Shown here in pieces: positions 6,483 to 34,748 of a stretch of 39,749 bases of DNA. Source of the DNA: a virus (taxonomy: Duplodnaviria > Heunggongvirae > Uroviricota > Caudoviricetes); IMG/VR virus record IMGVR_UViG_2541047827_000012; one strand, given 5' to 3'. The position numbers and the translations under genes are program-made. Position 1 is the stretch's first letter, and each line of letters begins with the position of its first letter. The notes under the pieces are model-generated. The model did no database searches, was not told the DNA's origin, and worked only from the letters and a program-made list of their open reading frames with translations.

Positions 6483-6586
6483 GTTAAATCTCCAGATAGT
6501 CGCAGCACCCGTTGCGCCGCATATCTGGTTATTCTATTACCTGTAAAACCACATATGGATAGAAAGACTGTAAATACGAATAGATA

Positions 6587-6601
6587 TTACCTTTCAGGTA
6601 A
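6587..6601. promoter_or_regulatory. Operator-like palindrome TTACCTTTCAGGTAA
   Basis: Perfect TTACC-N5-GGTAA inverted repeat about 40 bp upstream of the LexA box and antirepressor-paralog gene. Confidence 0.6.
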
Positions 6602-6638
6602 TTTGCAAAACGTGCTGGATAGCAAACAAATTATTTGA

Positions 6639-6658
6639 TACTGTATAAATATACAGTT
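6639..6658. promoter_or_regulatory. LexA (SOS) box
   Basis: TACTGTATAAATATACAGTT matches the CTGT-N8-ACAG LexA consensus; 20 bp upstream of ATG 6678 and overlaps a TATAAA -10-like element. Confidence 0.7.
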
Positions 6659-6677
6659 ATTGCATGGAGAAGATAAG

Positions 6678-6935
6678 ATGCAGCAGTATCACTATCCACT
6701 GGAAGACGGATTTACCGAAAGGATTCACACGCCGGGAGGCGTCAGGTCACTGGTGGAGGGATCGCACTTGATGAAATTACTCCGGGATCTCGATAAGGAT
6801 GGATTTAATGTCGATGGCCCACTTGCCGAACTGACTGCACTGATTAACTACGTCACCAGCTCACAGATGTCTATGCGGGATCTGCAAACACATCTCGACT
6901 ATTGTGCCGAACAATTACGAAAACAAACCAGATAA
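6678..6935 (+). CDS. Antirepressor C-terminal-domain paralog (lacks Bro-N domain), 85 aa
   Basis: SD GGAG before ATG 6678; sequence ...GVRSLVEGSHLMKLLRDLDKDGFNVDGPLAELTALINYV...RDLQTHLDY aligns at roughly 40-45 percent identity to the last 85 residues of the Bro-N protein at 7249..7935. Confidence 0.6.
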   Translation: MQQYHYPLEDGFTERIHTPGGVRSLVEGSHLMKLLRDLDKDGFNVDGPLAELTALINYVTSSQMSMRDLQTHLDYCAEQLRKQTR

Positions 6936-6966
6936 GGTTTGCAATTGCCAAGTGGAGTGCTTATAT

Positions 6967-6981
6967 TTACCTTTGCGGTAA
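6967..6981. promoter_or_regulatory. Operator-like palindrome TTACCTTTGCGGTAA
   Basis: Perfect TTACC-N5-GGTAA in the 312-bp non-coding stretch between the paralog and the antirepressor gene. Confidence 0.55.
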
Positions 6982-7248
6982 ATTTACATCGCACTCCTCT
7001 TGTGCCATAGTAATCGGGCACTGGCAAAATCCAGTGCCGGGATTGGCGTCCCGAGTTACTACAGAGGCACATATGCCGCATAAGCGGTTTTTTTTATGTG
7101 TAAAGCGCACCTATTCTATGGTGGGCTGTGTGGGGGCACCGAAAGGTGCGCCGGGTCCTTTGTAGCCGGTTACGCCAACCCTGCACAGTTCACCACCAAC
7201 CGATTGGCGTCGGTAGTGGTGATTAACCTAACTACAAAGGTGATCACT

Positions 7249-7935
7249 ATGACTGCTAACGTAACCCCATCTGTTTTTCATTTTGAATCAGAAGCAACCA
7301 TTCGAGCCATTGTTATTGATGGAAATCCTTGGTTTGTTGCCAAAGACGTTATTAAAGCTCTTCAACTGACAAACCCCACTATGTCAATAAAATCTCTTGA
7401 TGATGATGAAAGGGCTAAATTTAACTTAGGCCGTCAAGGCGAAACCAATATTATCAACGAGTCAGGCCTCTACACACTGATCCTCCGCTGCCGCGATGCA
7501 GTAACACCAGGCACTATCCCCTACCGCTTTCGCAAATGGGTTACAGGTGAGGTTCTTCCTCAGATCCGCCGCACCGGAAGTTACATTAAAAACTCGCTCC
7601 CGCAGGAAGAACGCATAAAGATGGTTGCCGACCAGGTTGCAAACGCCACAGCATCAGCAGTGATGCAGGCAATGAAGATAGAGAACAAAACCTACAGCGC
7701 CCCACTGAAGCCCGGCTACCGCAGCCTGATTCATTCGCCGTCTGGTGTTCTCGGCCTGACGGAGAACTCACTGCTGATGAATTTGCTGAACCAGTTACAG
7801 GAAGACGGGCATGACGTATCGGGCGCGGCGGCGGAGCTGACTACCATGTTCTGCTACATCGTCGGTGTGAGCAAATGCCTGCGTGATATCCAGACGCACG
7901 CGGAGTACATCAACGACAAGGCAGGGTTCTTCTGA
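7249..7935 (+). CDS. Antirepressor (Bro-N domain plus KilA-C-like C-terminal domain)
   Basis: SD AAAGGTGA before ATG 7249; Bro-N pattern FHFESEATIRAIVIDGNPWFVAKDVIKALQL...ESGLYTLILRCRDAVTPGTIPYRFRKWVTGEVLPQIRRTGSYI. Confidence 0.8.
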   Translation: MTANVTPSVFHFESEATIRAIVIDGNPWFVAKDVIKALQLTNPTMSIKSLDDDERAKFNLGRQGETNIINESGLYTLILRCRDAVTPGTIPYRFRKWVTGEVLPQIRRTGSYIKNSLPQEERIKMVADQVANATASAVMQAMKIENKTYSAPLKPGYRSLIHSPSGVLGLTENSLLMNLLNQLQEDGHDVSGAAAELTTMFCYIVGVSKCLRDIQTHAEYINDKAGFF

Positions 7936-8008
7936 CAGAACGGCGGCACAGGGATGTGCCTTTAAATAATTCTGTACAGATTGCAGACCGGGGGTGAATA
8001 GCGTACTA

Positions 8009-8023
8009 TTACCTTAAAGGTAA
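8009..8023. promoter_or_regulatory. Operator-like palindrome TTACCTTAAAGGTAA overlapping a putative promoter
   Basis: Perfect TTACC-N5-GGTAA; putative -35 TTGCAG (7981-7986) and -10 TACTAT (8004-8009) with 17-bp spacing put the site over the -10 and start of the 8050 operon. Confidence 0.55.
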
Positions 8024-8049: not shown

Positions 8050-8259
8050 ATGGGATTTTGGTTCGCTCGTACAAAAACGAGGGATAATGCACCCAGCCCT
8101 CAGGCAAAAAATGCAGAAGTTCCGGCGTCAGCGCAGGTTAACAAGCGTGGTGGTGTGTATATCTCATCACAGCAAATTTCTGAGCTTCCTGAGGTTAAGG
8201 AGATGCGTCGTCTCGCTGCTGCAATCGTTAAACAGGATCTTGCCACTGTAAGGAAATAG
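8050..8259 (+). CDS. Hypothetical 69-aa protein, first gene of accessory operon
   Basis: Strong SD GAGGAGGAG 6 nt before ATG 8050; stop overlaps start of the next gene. Confidence 0.5.
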   Translation: MGFWFARTKTRDNAPSPQAKNAEVPASAQVNKRGGVYISSQQISELPEVKEMRRLAAAIVKQDLATVRK

Positions 8260-9125
8260 TGTTGTTAGCTCTTCTAATTATCCCCATTCTGGTTAGTGGT
8301 TATATTATGATAACCGCTAACCAGTATCATTATTTCCGTTTATACCGACATGAAGGCCAGCTTCTTTATATGAAAGTAGCTGCATTAGGTACATATTGCC
8401 TTGTTGCTTCGGTAATAATTGCCGCATTTATAAAATATAAATATCCTGATTTTCACCTAGTTCACGATATGGTGGAAACTTTTAATGTAACGTCAAAACC
8501 AGAAACAGATAGAATTTACATGTGGCTGCTTCTTCTCTCAGCCACATCCATTTGCTTCTCTTTGTGTTATGTGTCTGTTGTGTGGGTGAAAGATTTTCTT
8601 CTTGGTTGTTTTTATAAACGTGATATTTATGAGCAAAAAACAGAGGCAATGAAGGCCAGAGTACTGCGAAAAACTTACTCGCAAGGTTCTTTAGACTTAC
8701 TATTGCTTGATGCTATTGAATCGGATCCTAAACGACCAATGCTGATTACTTTATCATCAAACAAAGTGTATGTTGGAATAATAAATGGTTCTGGTGAACC
8801 AACGGAAAATCAGGGTCCGCATCAGCACATATCTTTTGTTCCTTTAATGTCAGGATACAGGAACAAAGACAACTTATCTGTCACATTCACTAATGCTTAT
8901 CCAGGAGAAATACAGGTCAAGCGGACTGCAGCAATAAGAGGAATTAGCAGAAAGAAAGTGCCAGGACTTGAGATCATGGTGTCTATTGACGAAATAAGTT
9001 ATATATCATGGTTTGATTTTGAAGTATATAAAGCAACAAATAACAAAGTAGAATCCAGGGGGCACGTTATTCGTGTTACCAAAAATGGAAGAAATATATA
9101 TCAAAGAAATAGCAAAAAAGAATAG
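8259..9125 (+). CDS. Membrane-anchored protein of unknown function (N-terminal TM helices plus 160-aa soluble domain)
   Basis: GTG start at 8259 overlapping upstream stop (SD AGGA 8251-8254); about 3 hydrophobic helices in the first 110 aa; markedly AT-rich versus flanking phage DNA; followed by a terminator. Confidence 0.6.
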   Translation: MLLALLIIPILVSGYIMITANQYHYFRLYRHEGQLLYMKVAALGTYCLVASVIIAAFIKYKYPDFHLVHDMVETFNVTSKPETDRIYMWLLLLSATSICFSLCYVSVVWVKDFLLGCFYKRDIYEQKTEAMKARVLRKTYSQGSLDLLLLDAIESDPKRPMLITLSSNKVYVGIINGSGEPTENQGPHQHISFVPLMSGYRNKDNLSVTFTNAYPGEIQVKRTAAIRGISRKKVPGLEIMVSIDEISYISWFDFEVYKATNNKVESRGHVIRVTKNGRNIYQRNSKKE

Positions 9126-25971: not shown

Positions 25972-25986
25972 TTACCTTTCAGGTAA
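25972..25986. promoter_or_regulatory. Operator-like palindrome TTACCTTTCAGGTAA at head-operon promoter
   Basis: Identical 15-mer to the site at 6587; lies upstream (minus direction) of the 25881/portal operon next to a TTGACA hexamer. Confidence 0.55.
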
Positions 25987-26308: not shown

Positions 26309-26385
26309 GTGGCATTAGCTCAGTTGGACAGAGCAACCGCCTTCTAAGCGGTTGGTCGCAGGTTCGAATCCTGCATGCCACGCCA
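26309..26385 (+). tRNA. tRNA-Arg (anticodon TCT, reads AGA)
   Basis: Cloverleaf folded by hand: acceptor GTGGCAT/ATGCCAC, D-arm GCTC-AGTTGGACA-GAGC, anticodon stem ACCGC/GCGGT with loop CTTCTAA, T-arm GCAGG-TTCGAAT-CCTGC, discriminator G plus CCA. Confidence 0.9.
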
Positions 26386-28488: not shown

Positions 28489-29081
28489 TGATTACCATCC
28501 TGACGTTCTTTGAGTCGCTTCCTGGCTGCTGCTATGCGATCAGCAATTGTCACATTCACATTAACATCCAGACGTTCTTTGAACGCGTTGACATCAACAT
28601 GCTTACCAATCAGCTCAAGGTTCTTCACCTTGTCAGGCCATTTAATTTTTTTGAGGATTGTCTCTATCGAATCCTCGTTCATGTTCATGATGGTCGATGA
28701 CAGATCAAAGCCACTAAGCGTAGTGCGCCAGATTTTCGGCCACTCACGGATTGGTTTAAGGCTCCCATCGTCGTTGAGGATGTCGATCACGTCCATCTGG
28801 TCGATCTCCACCAGGCGCATGAGAACGTAATCAGCACTGACGCGCATTCGTTTGTTGCGCTCCTCCATCAACTCGGCAATCCGTTTTTGAATGCGTTCAT
28901 CGCGCATCATGACACTGGCTTTAACTGCCGCTGTATTTGGGGAGAATCCTGCGTTAATCGCTGCCTGAGTCTGGTTTTCAGGCGTTTTGATGTATGACTG
29001 GCAATAAGCCTCCTGCATTGCTGTTAGTGGCTTAAATTGCGTTGATTTGCGTTTATAGGTTTTAGGTTCAGCAGGCATCAT
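28485..29081 (-). CDS. Terminase small subunit
   Basis: Start set at internal ATG 29081 because the track N-terminal extension runs through upstream direct repeats; typical TerS size and position. Confidence 0.65.
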   Translation of the reverse strand: MMPAEPKTYKRKSTQFKPLTAMQEAYCQSYIKTPENQTQAAINAGFSPNTAAVKASVMMRDERIQKRIAELMEERNKRMRVSADYVLMRLVEIDQMDVIDILNDDGSLKPIREWPKIWRTTLSGFDLSSTIMNMNEDSIETILKKIKWPDKVKNLELIGKHVDVNAFKERLDVNVNVTIADRIAAARKRLKERQDGNQ

Positions 29082-29088
29082 AACCACC

Positions 29089-29120
29089 GTGGTAATAGTT
29101 ACCGTTGTGGTAATAGTACC
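29089..29120. repeat. Direct repeat GTGGTAATAGT(T)ACC x2 upstream of TerS
   Basis: Two copies at 29089-29103 and 29107-29120; each contains GGTAA-N3-(T)TACC, the operator half-sites in inverted order. Confidence 0.6.
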
Positions 29121-31590: not shown

Positions 31591-31605
31591 TTACCTCTGA
31601 GGTAA
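31591..31605. promoter_or_regulatory. Operator-like palindrome TTACCTCTGAGGTAA
   Basis: Perfect TTACC-N5-GGTAA, 4 bp upstream of the nuclease start codon and overlapping its RBS. Confidence 0.55.
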
Positions 31606-31652
31606 TTAAAAACCACATAAGACACTAAATCAATAGAATTTAGAATATTTTG

Positions 31653-31667
31653 TTACCCAATAGGTAA
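31653..31667. promoter_or_regulatory. Operator-like palindrome TTACCCAATAGGTAA
   Basis: Perfect TTACC-N5-GGTAA in the 117-bp gap between the P-like and nuclease genes. Confidence 0.55.
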
Positions 31668-33574: not shown

Positions 33575-33589
33575 TTACCTTTGAGGTAC
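33575..33589. promoter_or_regulatory. Operator-like site TTACCTTTGAGGTAC (one mismatch)
   Basis: TTACC-N5-GGTAc between the Cro-like terminator and the next early gene. Confidence 0.4.
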
Positions 33590-33593
33590 GAAT

Positions 33594-33622
33594 AGATATG
33601 AAAAGACCGCCGGGTGGCGGTC
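33594..33622 (-). terminator. Rho-independent terminator after the Cro-like gene (tR1-like position)
   Basis: GACCGCC-ggg? hairpin (GACCGCC/GGCGGTC at 33605-33622) followed on the minus strand by TTTTCAT. Confidence 0.5.
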
Positions 33623-33644: not shown

Positions 33645-33875
33645 TCATGAGTAGAAGAAGTATGCCAGTTCTGCTTTTGAGCGCAGCCATTGTCTTGTTT
33701 TACAGGCTTTAAAAAGCCCATTCATCAATACTTTACCTGGCATTTTGCGCTTACCTGTTAAGTGAGTCTGGATATAGTGACTCGTCGTTCCGGCTTCCTG
33801 TGCGAAGGCTTCACGCTCATCCGGAGTAAGTGCAAGCCAGTGCTTTTTGAAATCGAAATGTCCGTTATCGCTCAT
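33645..33875 (-). CDS. Cro-like HTH regulator (YdaS/Cro family)
   Basis: 76 aa; ...EREAFAQEAGTTSHYIQTHLTGKRKMPGK... parallels the lambda Cro HTH; divergent from the repressor gene across a three-operator region. Confidence 0.6.
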   Translation of the reverse strand: MSDNGHFDFKKHWLALTPDEREAFAQEAGTTSHYIQTHLTGKRKMPGKVLMNGLFKACKTRQWLRSKAELAYFFYS

Positions 33876-33911: not shown

Positions 33912-33974
33912 TCACCCATAAGGTAACAAAAATCAAGGATAGTTACCTATGAGGTGCATTTACCTGTTGGGTAA
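33912..33974. promoter_or_regulatory. Three clustered operator sites between the Cro-like and repressor genes (OR-like)
   Basis: 33912-33926 tCACC-N5-GGTAA, 33943-33957 TTACC-N5-GGTgc, 33960-33974 TTACC-N5-GGTAA; centre spacings 31 and 17 bp. Confidence 0.6.
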
Positions 33975-34029: not shown

Positions 34030-34614
34030 ATGAAAAGTATCCAGGACGTCCGCAGGCAAAATCTCAACGACTTGATCGACCGTGAATTCAATGGTGTTCA
34101 GACGCGGATGGCAGAAAAACTTGGAACTCAGGCAAATCTGGTAAACCGCTGGGCTCTTGGCAAGAAGGTTATCGGCGACCAGGTTGCACGAAAAATTGAA
34201 GCTGCCGCCAATAAACCCCGTAACTGGCTTGATATTGATCGCTCGCTTTCTCAGGAGGGTTTTCAGCCTGTCGGCCCGAGCGATATAGGTCAGCTGGCGG
34301 CTCACAACCTGGAACGCTGGATGAGCGAAAGCCGCGACCTTTCAACGCAGGGAAAACTACACCGCGCATCCGGCGTCGCCCAGGTGACAATCAGCCGCCT
34401 GTTAAACAATGAGGTCAGCGTTTCCATTTCCACCCTGGAGAATGTTGCATCCGCATTCGGGCGTCACGGCTATGAATTACTGATTCACCCGCACGACCCT
34501 GCGACCATCAACTATGATCGCTCGCGCTACGCATTGTTACCCGAAACCGAGAAAGCAAAGATCGAAAGTTACATTGAATTTGTCATCAACCAGAACGAAA
34601 AAAACAAACAATAA
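34030..34614 (+). CDS. Prophage repressor, double-HTH, no S24 peptidase domain (CI-like position)
   Basis: 194 aa with two HTH-like segments; no Ala-Gly cleavage site or Ser/Lys peptidase motifs seen; flanked by operator clusters; followed by a terminator. Confidence 0.65.
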   Translation: MKSIQDVRRQNLNDLIDREFNGVQTRMAEKLGTQANLVNRWALGKKVIGDQVARKIEAAANKPRNWLDIDRSLSQEGFQPVGPSDIGQLAAHNLERWMSESRDLSTQGKLHRASGVAQVTISRLLNNEVSVSISTLENVASAFGRHGYELLIHPHDPATINYDRSRYALLPETEKAKIESYIEFVINQNEKNKQ

Positions 34615-34671: not shown

Positions 34672-34686
34672 TTACCTAATGGGTAA
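34672..34686. promoter_or_regulatory. Operator-like palindrome TTACCTAATGGGTAA (OL-like, distal)
   Basis: Perfect TTACC-N5-GGTAA upstream of the TTGACA hexamer at 34706-34711. Confidence 0.55.
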
Positions 34687-34733
34687 TTTTTTTAACTCAT
34701 ATCTATTGACATCAAACCAGATACGCATAATTA

Positions 34734-34748
34734 TTACCTCAACGGTAA
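34734..34748. promoter_or_regulatory. Operator-like palindrome TTACCTCAACGGTAA overlapping the early rightward promoter (OL-like, proximal)
   Basis: Perfect TTACC-N5-GGTAA just downstream of TTGACA-N17 and followed by a GGTAAC half-site within the RBS of the first early ORF. Confidence 0.55.

Follow-up and report, generated by a model that had tools for sequence, protein, structure and literature searches.

In the Salmonella phage SPC32H, Kim and Ryu are said to have found that the repressor Rep is not cleaved during the SOS response but is inactivated by an antirepressor, Ant, whose gene is repressed by LexA. Structural work on this phage reportedly revealed an Ant tetramer that binds the C-terminal domains of two Rep dimers, and its authors are said to have described Ant as a structurally distinct class of antirepressor. 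Here, we compare with SPC32H and related systems the antirepressor genes and repressor encoded in a 39,749-nucleotide stretch of viral DNA (IMG/VR record IMGVR_UViG_2541047827_000012; below, the window is this whole stretch, numbered from its first letter). The window phage is an epsilon15/phiV10-like temperate podophage of the genus Uetakevirus, to which SPC32H also belongs, and is an E. coli prophage. With a probability of roughly 0.85, we conclude that it carries an SPC32H-type switch of two layers, in which SOS-triggered Ant would act against a non-cleavable Rep, while a separate module gated by C4 antisense RNA and the IsrK small RNA (sRNA) would provide a Bro-N/Ant-domain protein. This conclusion is carried by the homology of all the parts, by where the LexA box and the Rep operators lie and how far they are enriched and conserved, and by covarying pairing between C4 and its targets.

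SPC32H Rep is a DNA-binding tetramer that is split into dimers by tetrameric Ant (PMC9638917), and release of an antirepressor through LexA self-cleavage is described for Salmonella phages in PMC7380047, with Kim & Ryu 2013 among the cases. Two further systems bear on the second layer. In phages P1 and P7, C4 base-pairs around the ribosome-binding site and so prevents the antirepressor from being made, according to the summaries of Citron & Schuster 1990 in PMC7313666 and PMC12197685. In the prophage Gifsy-1, providing IsrK in trans boosts translation of the antirepressor encoded downstream by 139-fold (Hershko-Shalev et al. 2016, PMC4825925).

Ant, Rep and the LexA box

The first layer comprises four features:

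6678-6935, plus strand: ant, 85 amino acids, with GGAG 8 nucleotides before the ATG
34030-34614, plus strand: rep, 194 amino acids, with two helix-turn-helix (HTH)-type domains and without a peptidase domain
6639-6658, no strand assigned: LexA (SOS) box TACTGTATAAATATACAGTT, unique and conserved
6616-6644, plus strand: probable ant promoter, with -35 TGGATA at 6616-6621, a 17-bp spacer and -10 TACTGT at 6639-6644

Ant matches the SPC32H Ant structure (PDB 5D50_E) over residues 2-84 with an E-value of 1.4e-46, and is 86.7% identical to SPC32H Ant (tblastn) and 98-100% identical to the Ants of phiV10/ZX5-type E. coli phages. It has no significant match in Pfam, and none to the Pfam antirepressors; its protein family, phrog_450, is annotated as being of unknown function. 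Rep matches SPC32H Rep (5D50_A) over residues 1-190 (E 4e-42), and its C-terminal half matches the separate C-terminal domain structure, 5D4Z (E 4e-20). The two repressors are 42-43% identical over their full length. All profile matches of Rep are of HTH type, with HTH_3 found in two stretches (best at 106-147) and a YdaS-type match at 21-61. A search for Peptidase_S24 in Rep found none at E <= 1 in Pfam and none at E <= 0.01 in NCBIfam, and Rep contains neither an Ala-Gly nor a Cys-Gly dipeptide. Since the SPC32H Rep match spans both domains, it leaves no stretch of Rep in which a peptidase domain could hide. The repressors of phiV10, ZX5 and some dozen other E. coli phages have the very same sequence as Rep (100% identity), and the phage records holding an Ant homologue (n = 35) or a Rep homologue (n = 37) form essentially the same set.

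The E. coli SOS-box consensus is TACTGTATATATATACAGTA, with which the box at 6639-6658 agrees at 18 of 20 positions. No second match to TACTGTATAAATATACAGTT occurs in the window at up to 3 mismatches (0 expected), and among the three CTGT-N8-ACAG sites of the window an all-A/T spacer is found in this box alone. In an alignment of the tailspike-ant intergenic regions of the window, phiV10, TL-2011b and SPC32H, the CTGT/ACAG arms are invariant and the spacer is variable; Tyrion has a box with the same arms at the homologous position, and a Klebsiella relative has ATGT-N8-ACAG in its place. SPC32H and SPC32N differ by 2 bases over 5.2 kb around ant, of which only one falls in the intergenic region next to ant; there it turns the C of the ACAG arm into A in SPC32N, at the equivalent of window position 6654. 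In Kim and Ryu's account, this change reportedly leads to constitutive Ant synthesis and a lytic phenotype. Judged by this comparison among phages, the LexA box is probably functional.

The promoter of ant is less distinct. A motif, CTGGAWA, is kept 26-27 bp before the LexA core in 6 phages despite divergent flanks, and from the conserved TGGATA-17-TACTGT arrangement we place the -10 on the left arm of the LexA box, with a predicted start near 6651. A consensus promoter scan of both strands of 6483-6677, with a threshold of 9 of 12, found no site at or above it; the hexamers score below this threshold, and the assignment is drawn from conservation only.

These results uphold most of a preliminary description of the locus, made from the letters alone. 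Its antirepressor-like product of 6678-6935 is a homologue of SPC32H Ant, and its repressor with two HTH segments and no S24 domain withstood the profile search it had itself proposed, at permissive cut-offs. Its near-consensus LexA box is present, unique in the window and conserved in six related phages, whereas the overlap of the box with a probable promoter stands as a conserved arrangement around a predicted promoter. With an Ant homologue, a two-domain, non-cleavable Rep homologue and a LexA box at the homologous position all found, its proposal that induction proceeds through the release of an antirepressor gene from LexA, and not through repressor cleavage, is well supported.

From the E. 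coli to the Salmonella phages, Ant retains 87% identity, against only 42% for Rep, its presumed target. Ant may touch a small patch of Rep that has been conserved, or it may be subject to another constraint; cross-reactivity of Ant and Rep between the two groups of phages is possible.

The slot occupied by ant, between the late genes and the tailspike gene, is common to the window and SPC32H. Of 5426 complete E. coli genomes, 293 contain the whole ant/isrK/C4/Bro-N stretch at a coverage of >=80%, some of these prophages residing in O157 and other pathogenic strains, and ant is annotated in these genomes solely as a hypothetical protein. For annotators and experimenters alike, identifying the switch as SPC32H-type indicates the route of induction of these common prophages, the prediction being that it depends on cleavage of LexA and not of the repressor.

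Rep operators and the promoters they accompany

The following features concern the binding sites of Rep outside the second module:

33912-33974, no strand assigned: three operators between rep and cro, with starts at 33912, 33943 (2 mismatches) and 33960, from a motif search
33645-33875, minus strand: cro-like gene, divergent from rep (phrog_35, transcriptional repressor)
34706-34734, plus strand: early promoter TTGACA-17-AATTAT, with operators at 34672-34686 and 34734-34748
6587-6601, no strand assigned: operator-like palindrome TTACCTTTCAGGTAA upstream of ant, conserved in the four-phage alignment
4293-6482, minus strand: tailspike gene, divergent from ant
7981-8009, plus strand: promoter-like TTGCAG-17-TACTAT, with operator TTACCTTAAAGGTAA at 8009-8023 over the start, read from the sequence

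At up to one mismatch, TTACCT-N4-GGTAA gives 23 strand-matches in the window, at 12 sites against 0.32 expected, and TTACC-N5-GGTAA gives 18 matches in SPC32H against 0.48 expected, with 3 sites between rep and the divergent cro-like gene. Because the motif is enriched in both phages, with three rep/cro sites in each, TTACC-N5-GGTAA is very probably the Rep operator. The leftward promoter of the cro-like gene (TTGTTA-17-TATTAT) has the operator at 33912-33926 in its spacer, and in the early promoter the operator starts at the last base of the -10; an operator covers the -10/+1 junction at 34706-34748, at 6939-6981 and at 7981-8023. The Rep regulon seems to comprise about a dozen sites genome-wide, beyond the two divergent promoters.

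The layout at 6587-6601 differs from these three: the operator ends 14 bp before the probable ant -35, and lies at about -57 from the probable start. The preliminary description had proposed dual control of ant by LexA and the phage repressor, and half of this stands, in that the operator is present with conserved spacing; it sits upstream of the -35. The sequence between this operator and the LexA core has diverged, yet its length has stayed at 54 bp in five phages and at 53 bp in the Klebsiella phage, which argues that the operator belongs with the ant promoter. The competing view is that this operator does not serve ant at all, but controls the divergent tailspike gene or anchors a Rep loop to the operators at 6967 and 8009. 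Beyond the unusual position of the site, this view can point to a palindromic TTGCAA that abuts the operator as a possible leftward -35, and to the reasoning that Rep, if it repressed ant tightly, would stand in the way of SOS induction, so that strong repression would be self-defeating. A tailspike promoter at this operator was nevertheless rejected as a candidate: we found no convincing or conserved -10 on the minus strand by reading, and the scan gave no match there. With the near-exact spacing to the LexA core weighed in, we regard an operator unconnected with ant as a serious contender, but the less probable one. Judged from the sequence, Rep may repress the ant promoter, assist it or leave it unaffected.

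Further operators, perfect or near-perfect, lie at 25972-25986, 29081-29113, 31591-31667 and 33575-33589, near the tRNA and late genes and between early genes. Some operators form pairs spaced 62 bp start-to-start, at 34672/34734 and 31591/31653 in the window and at 33604/33666 and 35972/36034 in SPC32H (sequence L004); one Rep tetramer could bridge two such sites, about six helical turns apart. A lone half-site, TTACC, lies inside the invariant TTCTATTACC (6538-6547), 49 bp upstream of the 6587 operator, and is kept in 4 of 4 aligned phages.

The promoter-like site at 7981-8009, which scores below the 9-of-12 threshold, precedes with its operator two open reading frames (ORFs), at 8050-8259 (69 amino acids) and 8259-9125 (288 amino acids, with an N terminus that looks hydrophobic). 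Neither has a match in Pfam, PADLOC or NCBIfam, and in PHROG they match only phrog_5739 and phrog_3630, two families of unknown function. The corresponding place in TL-2011b also has an operator (L003 5174), followed there by other cargo genes. A tRNA-Arg gene (anticodon TCT) lies at 26309-26385 on the plus strand of the window, and SPC32H has a tRNA-Arg annotated at L004 2788-2861. Downstream of the tailspike gene, at 1687-1810 on the minus strand, we found a full-length STnc490 Hfq-binding sRNA (RF01405, 146 bits).

The IsrK/C4-associated Bro-N module

The second module lies directly downstream of ant:

7249-7935, plus strand: second antirepressor, 228 amino acids, Bro-N at 18-104 (Pfam) fused to an Ant-like C-terminal domain at about 147-226
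6939-6967, plus strand: promoter-like TTGCAA-17-TATATT, its last T being the first operator base, with the same architecture as 34706-34734
6967-6981, no strand assigned: Rep operator TTACCTTTGCGGTAA, flanked by the two promoter-like sites of the module
6983-7011, plus strand: isrK promoter-like TTTACA-17-CATAGT with TG, ending 7 nucleotides before the IsrK 5' end
7018-7094, plus strand: IsrK-family sRNA (Rfam RF01394, 74.2 bits; gathering score 50)
7114-7200, plus strand: C4 antisense RNA (Rfam RF01695, 79.5 bits; gathering score 45)
7204-7240, plus strand: C4 targets in the Bro-N leader, b2 TTGGCGT at 7204-7210 and a2 CTACAAAGG at 7232-7240

The product of 7249-7935, previously described as a Bro-N antirepressor, does have a Bro-N domain, to which we can add that this is fused to a domain homologous to Ant. 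The C-terminal domain is 41% identical to Ant (E 2e-16) and matches 5D50_E over residues 147-223 (E 1e-13); among PHROG families the protein matches phrog_450 (E 4e-36) and phrog_130. The small Ants and the Bro-N C-terminal domains share 19 invariant positions, including a DG..V.G..AE core, and every phage of the collection with the Ant-like domain has a Rep homologue as well. In ZX5, whose Rep is identical, the last 88 amino acids of ORF4 are identical to those of the window protein. Overexpression of ORF4 lowered the prophage titre from 10^9 to 10^6 and lowered lysogeny, and the ZX5 lysogen is inducible by mitomycin C; the study does not mention LexA, a small Ant or the RNAs (PMC9782041).

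From these data, the fusion protein probably also targets Rep. It could instead be aimed at the repressors of other prophages, or serve another Bro-type function such as DNA binding, with its Ant-like domain used for oligomerisation only. Identity to Ant of only 41% leaves room for this, as do the diverse roles proposed for Bro-N proteins, whose cassette with isrK and c4 is also seen in APSE phages (PMC7313666), and the antirepressor cross-talk known among Gifsy prophages (PMC3121763). In phiV10, moreover, the Bro-N gene (L002 3071-3750) is broken: a frameshift in the part encoding the Ant-like domain divides it into p23 (194 amino acids) and p22 (29 amino acids). The same split is seen in O157 typing phages 9 and 10, and the second antirepressor is probably inactive in all three. 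We nonetheless consider a target other than the phage's own Rep unlikely, given the restriction of the domain to Rep-carrying phages, its invariant positions, the roughly 1000-fold loss of ZX5 titre, and a module promoter wired to a Rep operator in every Rep-type phage examined. This operator precedes isrK at a fixed distance in five such phages (the window, phiV10, TL-2011b, Tyrion and the Klebsiella phage), whereas an Stx phage with the same RNA cassette lacks it and has a different promoter there.

The spacer of 313 bp between ant and the Bro-N gene (6936-7248) is densely occupied. IsrK carries two decoy sites, b1 and a1 (TTGGCGT at 7043-7049 and CTACAGAGG at 7059-7067), and ends in an intrinsic terminator, with a stem at 7075-7088 followed by a T run; the region scores 44.3 bits against RF03163 c4-a1b1, just under the gathering score of 46.7. 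C4 presents a' CCTTTGTAG at 7157-7165 (RNA CCUUUGUAG) in a hairpin loop and b' ACGCCAA at 7172-7178 in single-stranded form. The a' sequence pairs exactly with CUACAAAGG at 7232-7240, the a2 target overlapping the Shine-Dalgarno sequence of the ATG at 7249, and, with one G-U pair among its base pairs, with IsrK CUACAGAGG at 7059-7067; b' pairs with UUGGCGU both in the leader (7204-7210) and in IsrK (7043-7049). In a predicted fold of the transcript 6936-7260, the C4 loops pair in cis with the IsrK sites (z -7.5), which resembles the inactive structure described for Gifsy-1. C4 and its targets covary, falling into three specificity classes across six phages; relative to the window, the other phages show the following:

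phiV10, TL-2011b: C4 a' CCUUUUAG, both targets CUAAAAGG
Stx phage (phi296): C4 a' CCUUUUUC, both targets GAAAAAGG
Tyrion, Klebsiella phage: b' changed to AGACCAA, both targets UUGGUCU

What fills the spacer also bears on the earlier claim of a single operon under LexA, comprising ant and the Bro-N gene, in which both antirepressors would be made together on SOS. A scan of the spacer found no terminator-like site between the ant stop (6935) and isrK, so transcripts from the ant promoter probably run into the spacer, probably ending in IsrK sequence; some may pass the IsrK terminator, which in Gifsy-1 is leaky (PMC4825925). Yet the Bro-N gene is set apart from ant by two promoter-like sites, a Rep operator, an intrinsic terminator with its T run and a C4 RNA that pairs with its Shine-Dalgarno sequence, and the two genes are also separable among phages. 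In SPC32H and its Salmonella relatives ant stands alone in the slot without the isrK/C4/Bro-N module, in TL-2011b a 1.1-kb insertion holding an opposite-strand feature separates ant from isrK, and in the Stx phage the isrK-C4-antirepressor cassette stands alone. The single-operon claim is therefore given up as improbable.

A proposed switch and its known relatives

A classical lambda-type switch, with RecA-aided cleavage of Rep and a LexA box arising as a chance match, found no supporting evidence and can be put aside as barely conceivable, since a self-cleaving repressor of the lambda CI/LexA type is rejected by the lack of an S24 domain and of an AG/CG site in a Rep that aligns over its whole length to the all-HTH SPC32H Rep, and since the box is unique, conserved and mutated in SPC32N.

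We propose that the SPC32H-type switch of the window phage works as follows. In the lysogen, Rep would hold the early promoters off by binding its TTACC-N5-GGTAA operators, and host LexA would sit on the 6639-6658 box, covering the -10 and start of the ant promoter. DNA damage would lead to LexA cleavage and synthesis of Ant, which would bind the uncleaved Rep and strip it from its operators. Loss of Rep would derepress the early promoters and those at 6939-7011. From the latter, IsrK sRNA would be made up to its terminator, and read-through of this leaky site would yield C4 and then the Bro-N mRNA. C4 would pair with the Shine-Dalgarno region of this mRNA and block its translation, and IsrK, which has the same target sequences, might act as a decoy for C4. 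Once C4 is outcompeted, the Bro-N/Ant-domain protein would be made and would reinforce the loss of Rep as an amplifier. The second module may thus act after the first inactivation of Rep; alternatively, it may act on superinfection, as an anti-immunity function.

Several points weigh against this reading. Rep is only 42-43% identical to its SPC32H counterpart, against 87% for Ant, and the Rep-Ant interface is assumed to be alike. The hexamers of the ant promoter are weak and its start site is a prediction. Coupling of ant to isrK by read-through is not universal, as the insertion in TL-2011b demonstrates, and the Bro-N frameshift of phiV10 means that some viable phages, at least, can do without the second module. 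Finally, DNA binding by LexA and Rep, Rep-Ant binding and induction in this phage are predictions made from its relatives.

More tentatively, the two modules might form a single staged circuit, in which the ant mRNA ends in IsrK and so supplies a C4 decoy, the Rep-operated promoters then fire, and the Bro-N/Ant protein locks in the loss of Rep by positive feedback. Rep might even stimulate ant: if the 6587 operator lets Rep activate the weak ant promoter, expression of ant would require both the presence of Rep and the absence of LexA. As the window phage and phiV10 share Rep and differ in C4 class, they may also be heteroimmune in the P1/P7 sense, with immunity differing between phages of identical Rep. 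We consider this extended scheme speculative.

We found no description in the literature of a staged single circuit of two such modules, and none of a LexA-controlled Ant beside a Rep-operated, C4-gated Bro-N/Ant fusion, of the fusion itself, or of the fixed spacing between operator and LexA box. Each part of this composite layout is of a known kind, and the core of LexA-controlled antirepression is already established for SPC32H; our understanding of the mechanisms, worked out in SPC32H, P1/P7 and Gifsy-1, is unchanged by it.

SPC32H is the closest of these systems to the first layer. The two phages are alike in having homologous Ant (87%) and Rep (42%, full length) proteins, a LexA box at the homologous position and the same TTACC-N5-GGTAA operator core, with one site 54 bp before the LexA core. 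They are unlike in two respects: the window has, in addition, the isrK/C4/Bro-N module and another operon of two genes behind a Rep operator, and Rep has diverged far more than Ant. The preliminary description had named Gifsy-type prophages and coliphage 186 as the precedent. The Gifsy antirepressors (Lemire et al. 2011, PMC3121763) and 186 Tum (Shearwin et al. 1998) follow the same logic, in which a LexA-repressed small protein inactivates a non-cleavable repressor. Their resemblance to Ant is one of mechanism. No homology was found, the search being that of Ant against Pfam, and the window is better placed as an SPC32H-type switch, within its own genus, than as a new Gifsy/186-like case.

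The second module resembles the immI region of P1 and P7. In both, a C4-family RNA comes from the same transcript as the antirepressor mRNA, with a1/b1 targets upstream and a2/b2 targets downstream that cover the ribosome-binding site, and the same main repressor occurs with different C4 specificities, the window being to phiV10 as P1 is to P7. In the immI region, too, an operator of the main repressor, Op51, lies at the promoter of the module. The window differs in having no icd-like leader gene and in that C4 pairs directly with the antirepressor Shine-Dalgarno sequence. No icd-type leader ORF ends at the ATG at 7249, and the sole in-frame upstream ATG (7096) lacks a Shine-Dalgarno sequence and fuses to the gene. 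It also differs in that its antirepressor is a Bro-N/Ant fusion and its upstream targets lie in a discrete, terminated sRNA, IsrK.

With the Gifsy-1 isrK-orf45-anrP locus, the module shares IsrK with its leaky terminator, a conserved structured region and an antirepressor gene (PMC4825925); unlike Gifsy-1, the promoter in the window carries a Rep operator. The orf45 region corresponds to window 7096-7248, where C4 scores above the Rfam threshold. An equivalent of orf45 was rejected here, its frame not being conserved: the ATG at 7119 opens 15 codons and that at 7096 is in frame with the Bro-N gene, and the overlap of orf45 stop and antirepressor start (AUGA coupling) has no counterpart in the window, where the frames differ. 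The region is thus better read as a C4 RNA. In Gifsy-1 itself, orf45 shows conserved nucleotides, a variable peptide and a processed species of about 80 nucleotides (PMC4825925), observations that would fit an RNA (C4) function there.

In the window, the RNA-level features of both the P1/P7 immI region and the isrK locus are present and the leader ORFs of both systems are lacking. By its sequence features, the second module is of the P1/P7 immI type and is also built like the isrK locus of Gifsy-1. The composite layout thus presents a portable, sRNA-controlled Bro-N cassette that appears to have been fitted with the operator of the resident repressor and with a matching effector domain, next to an antirepressor switch of the SPC32H type.

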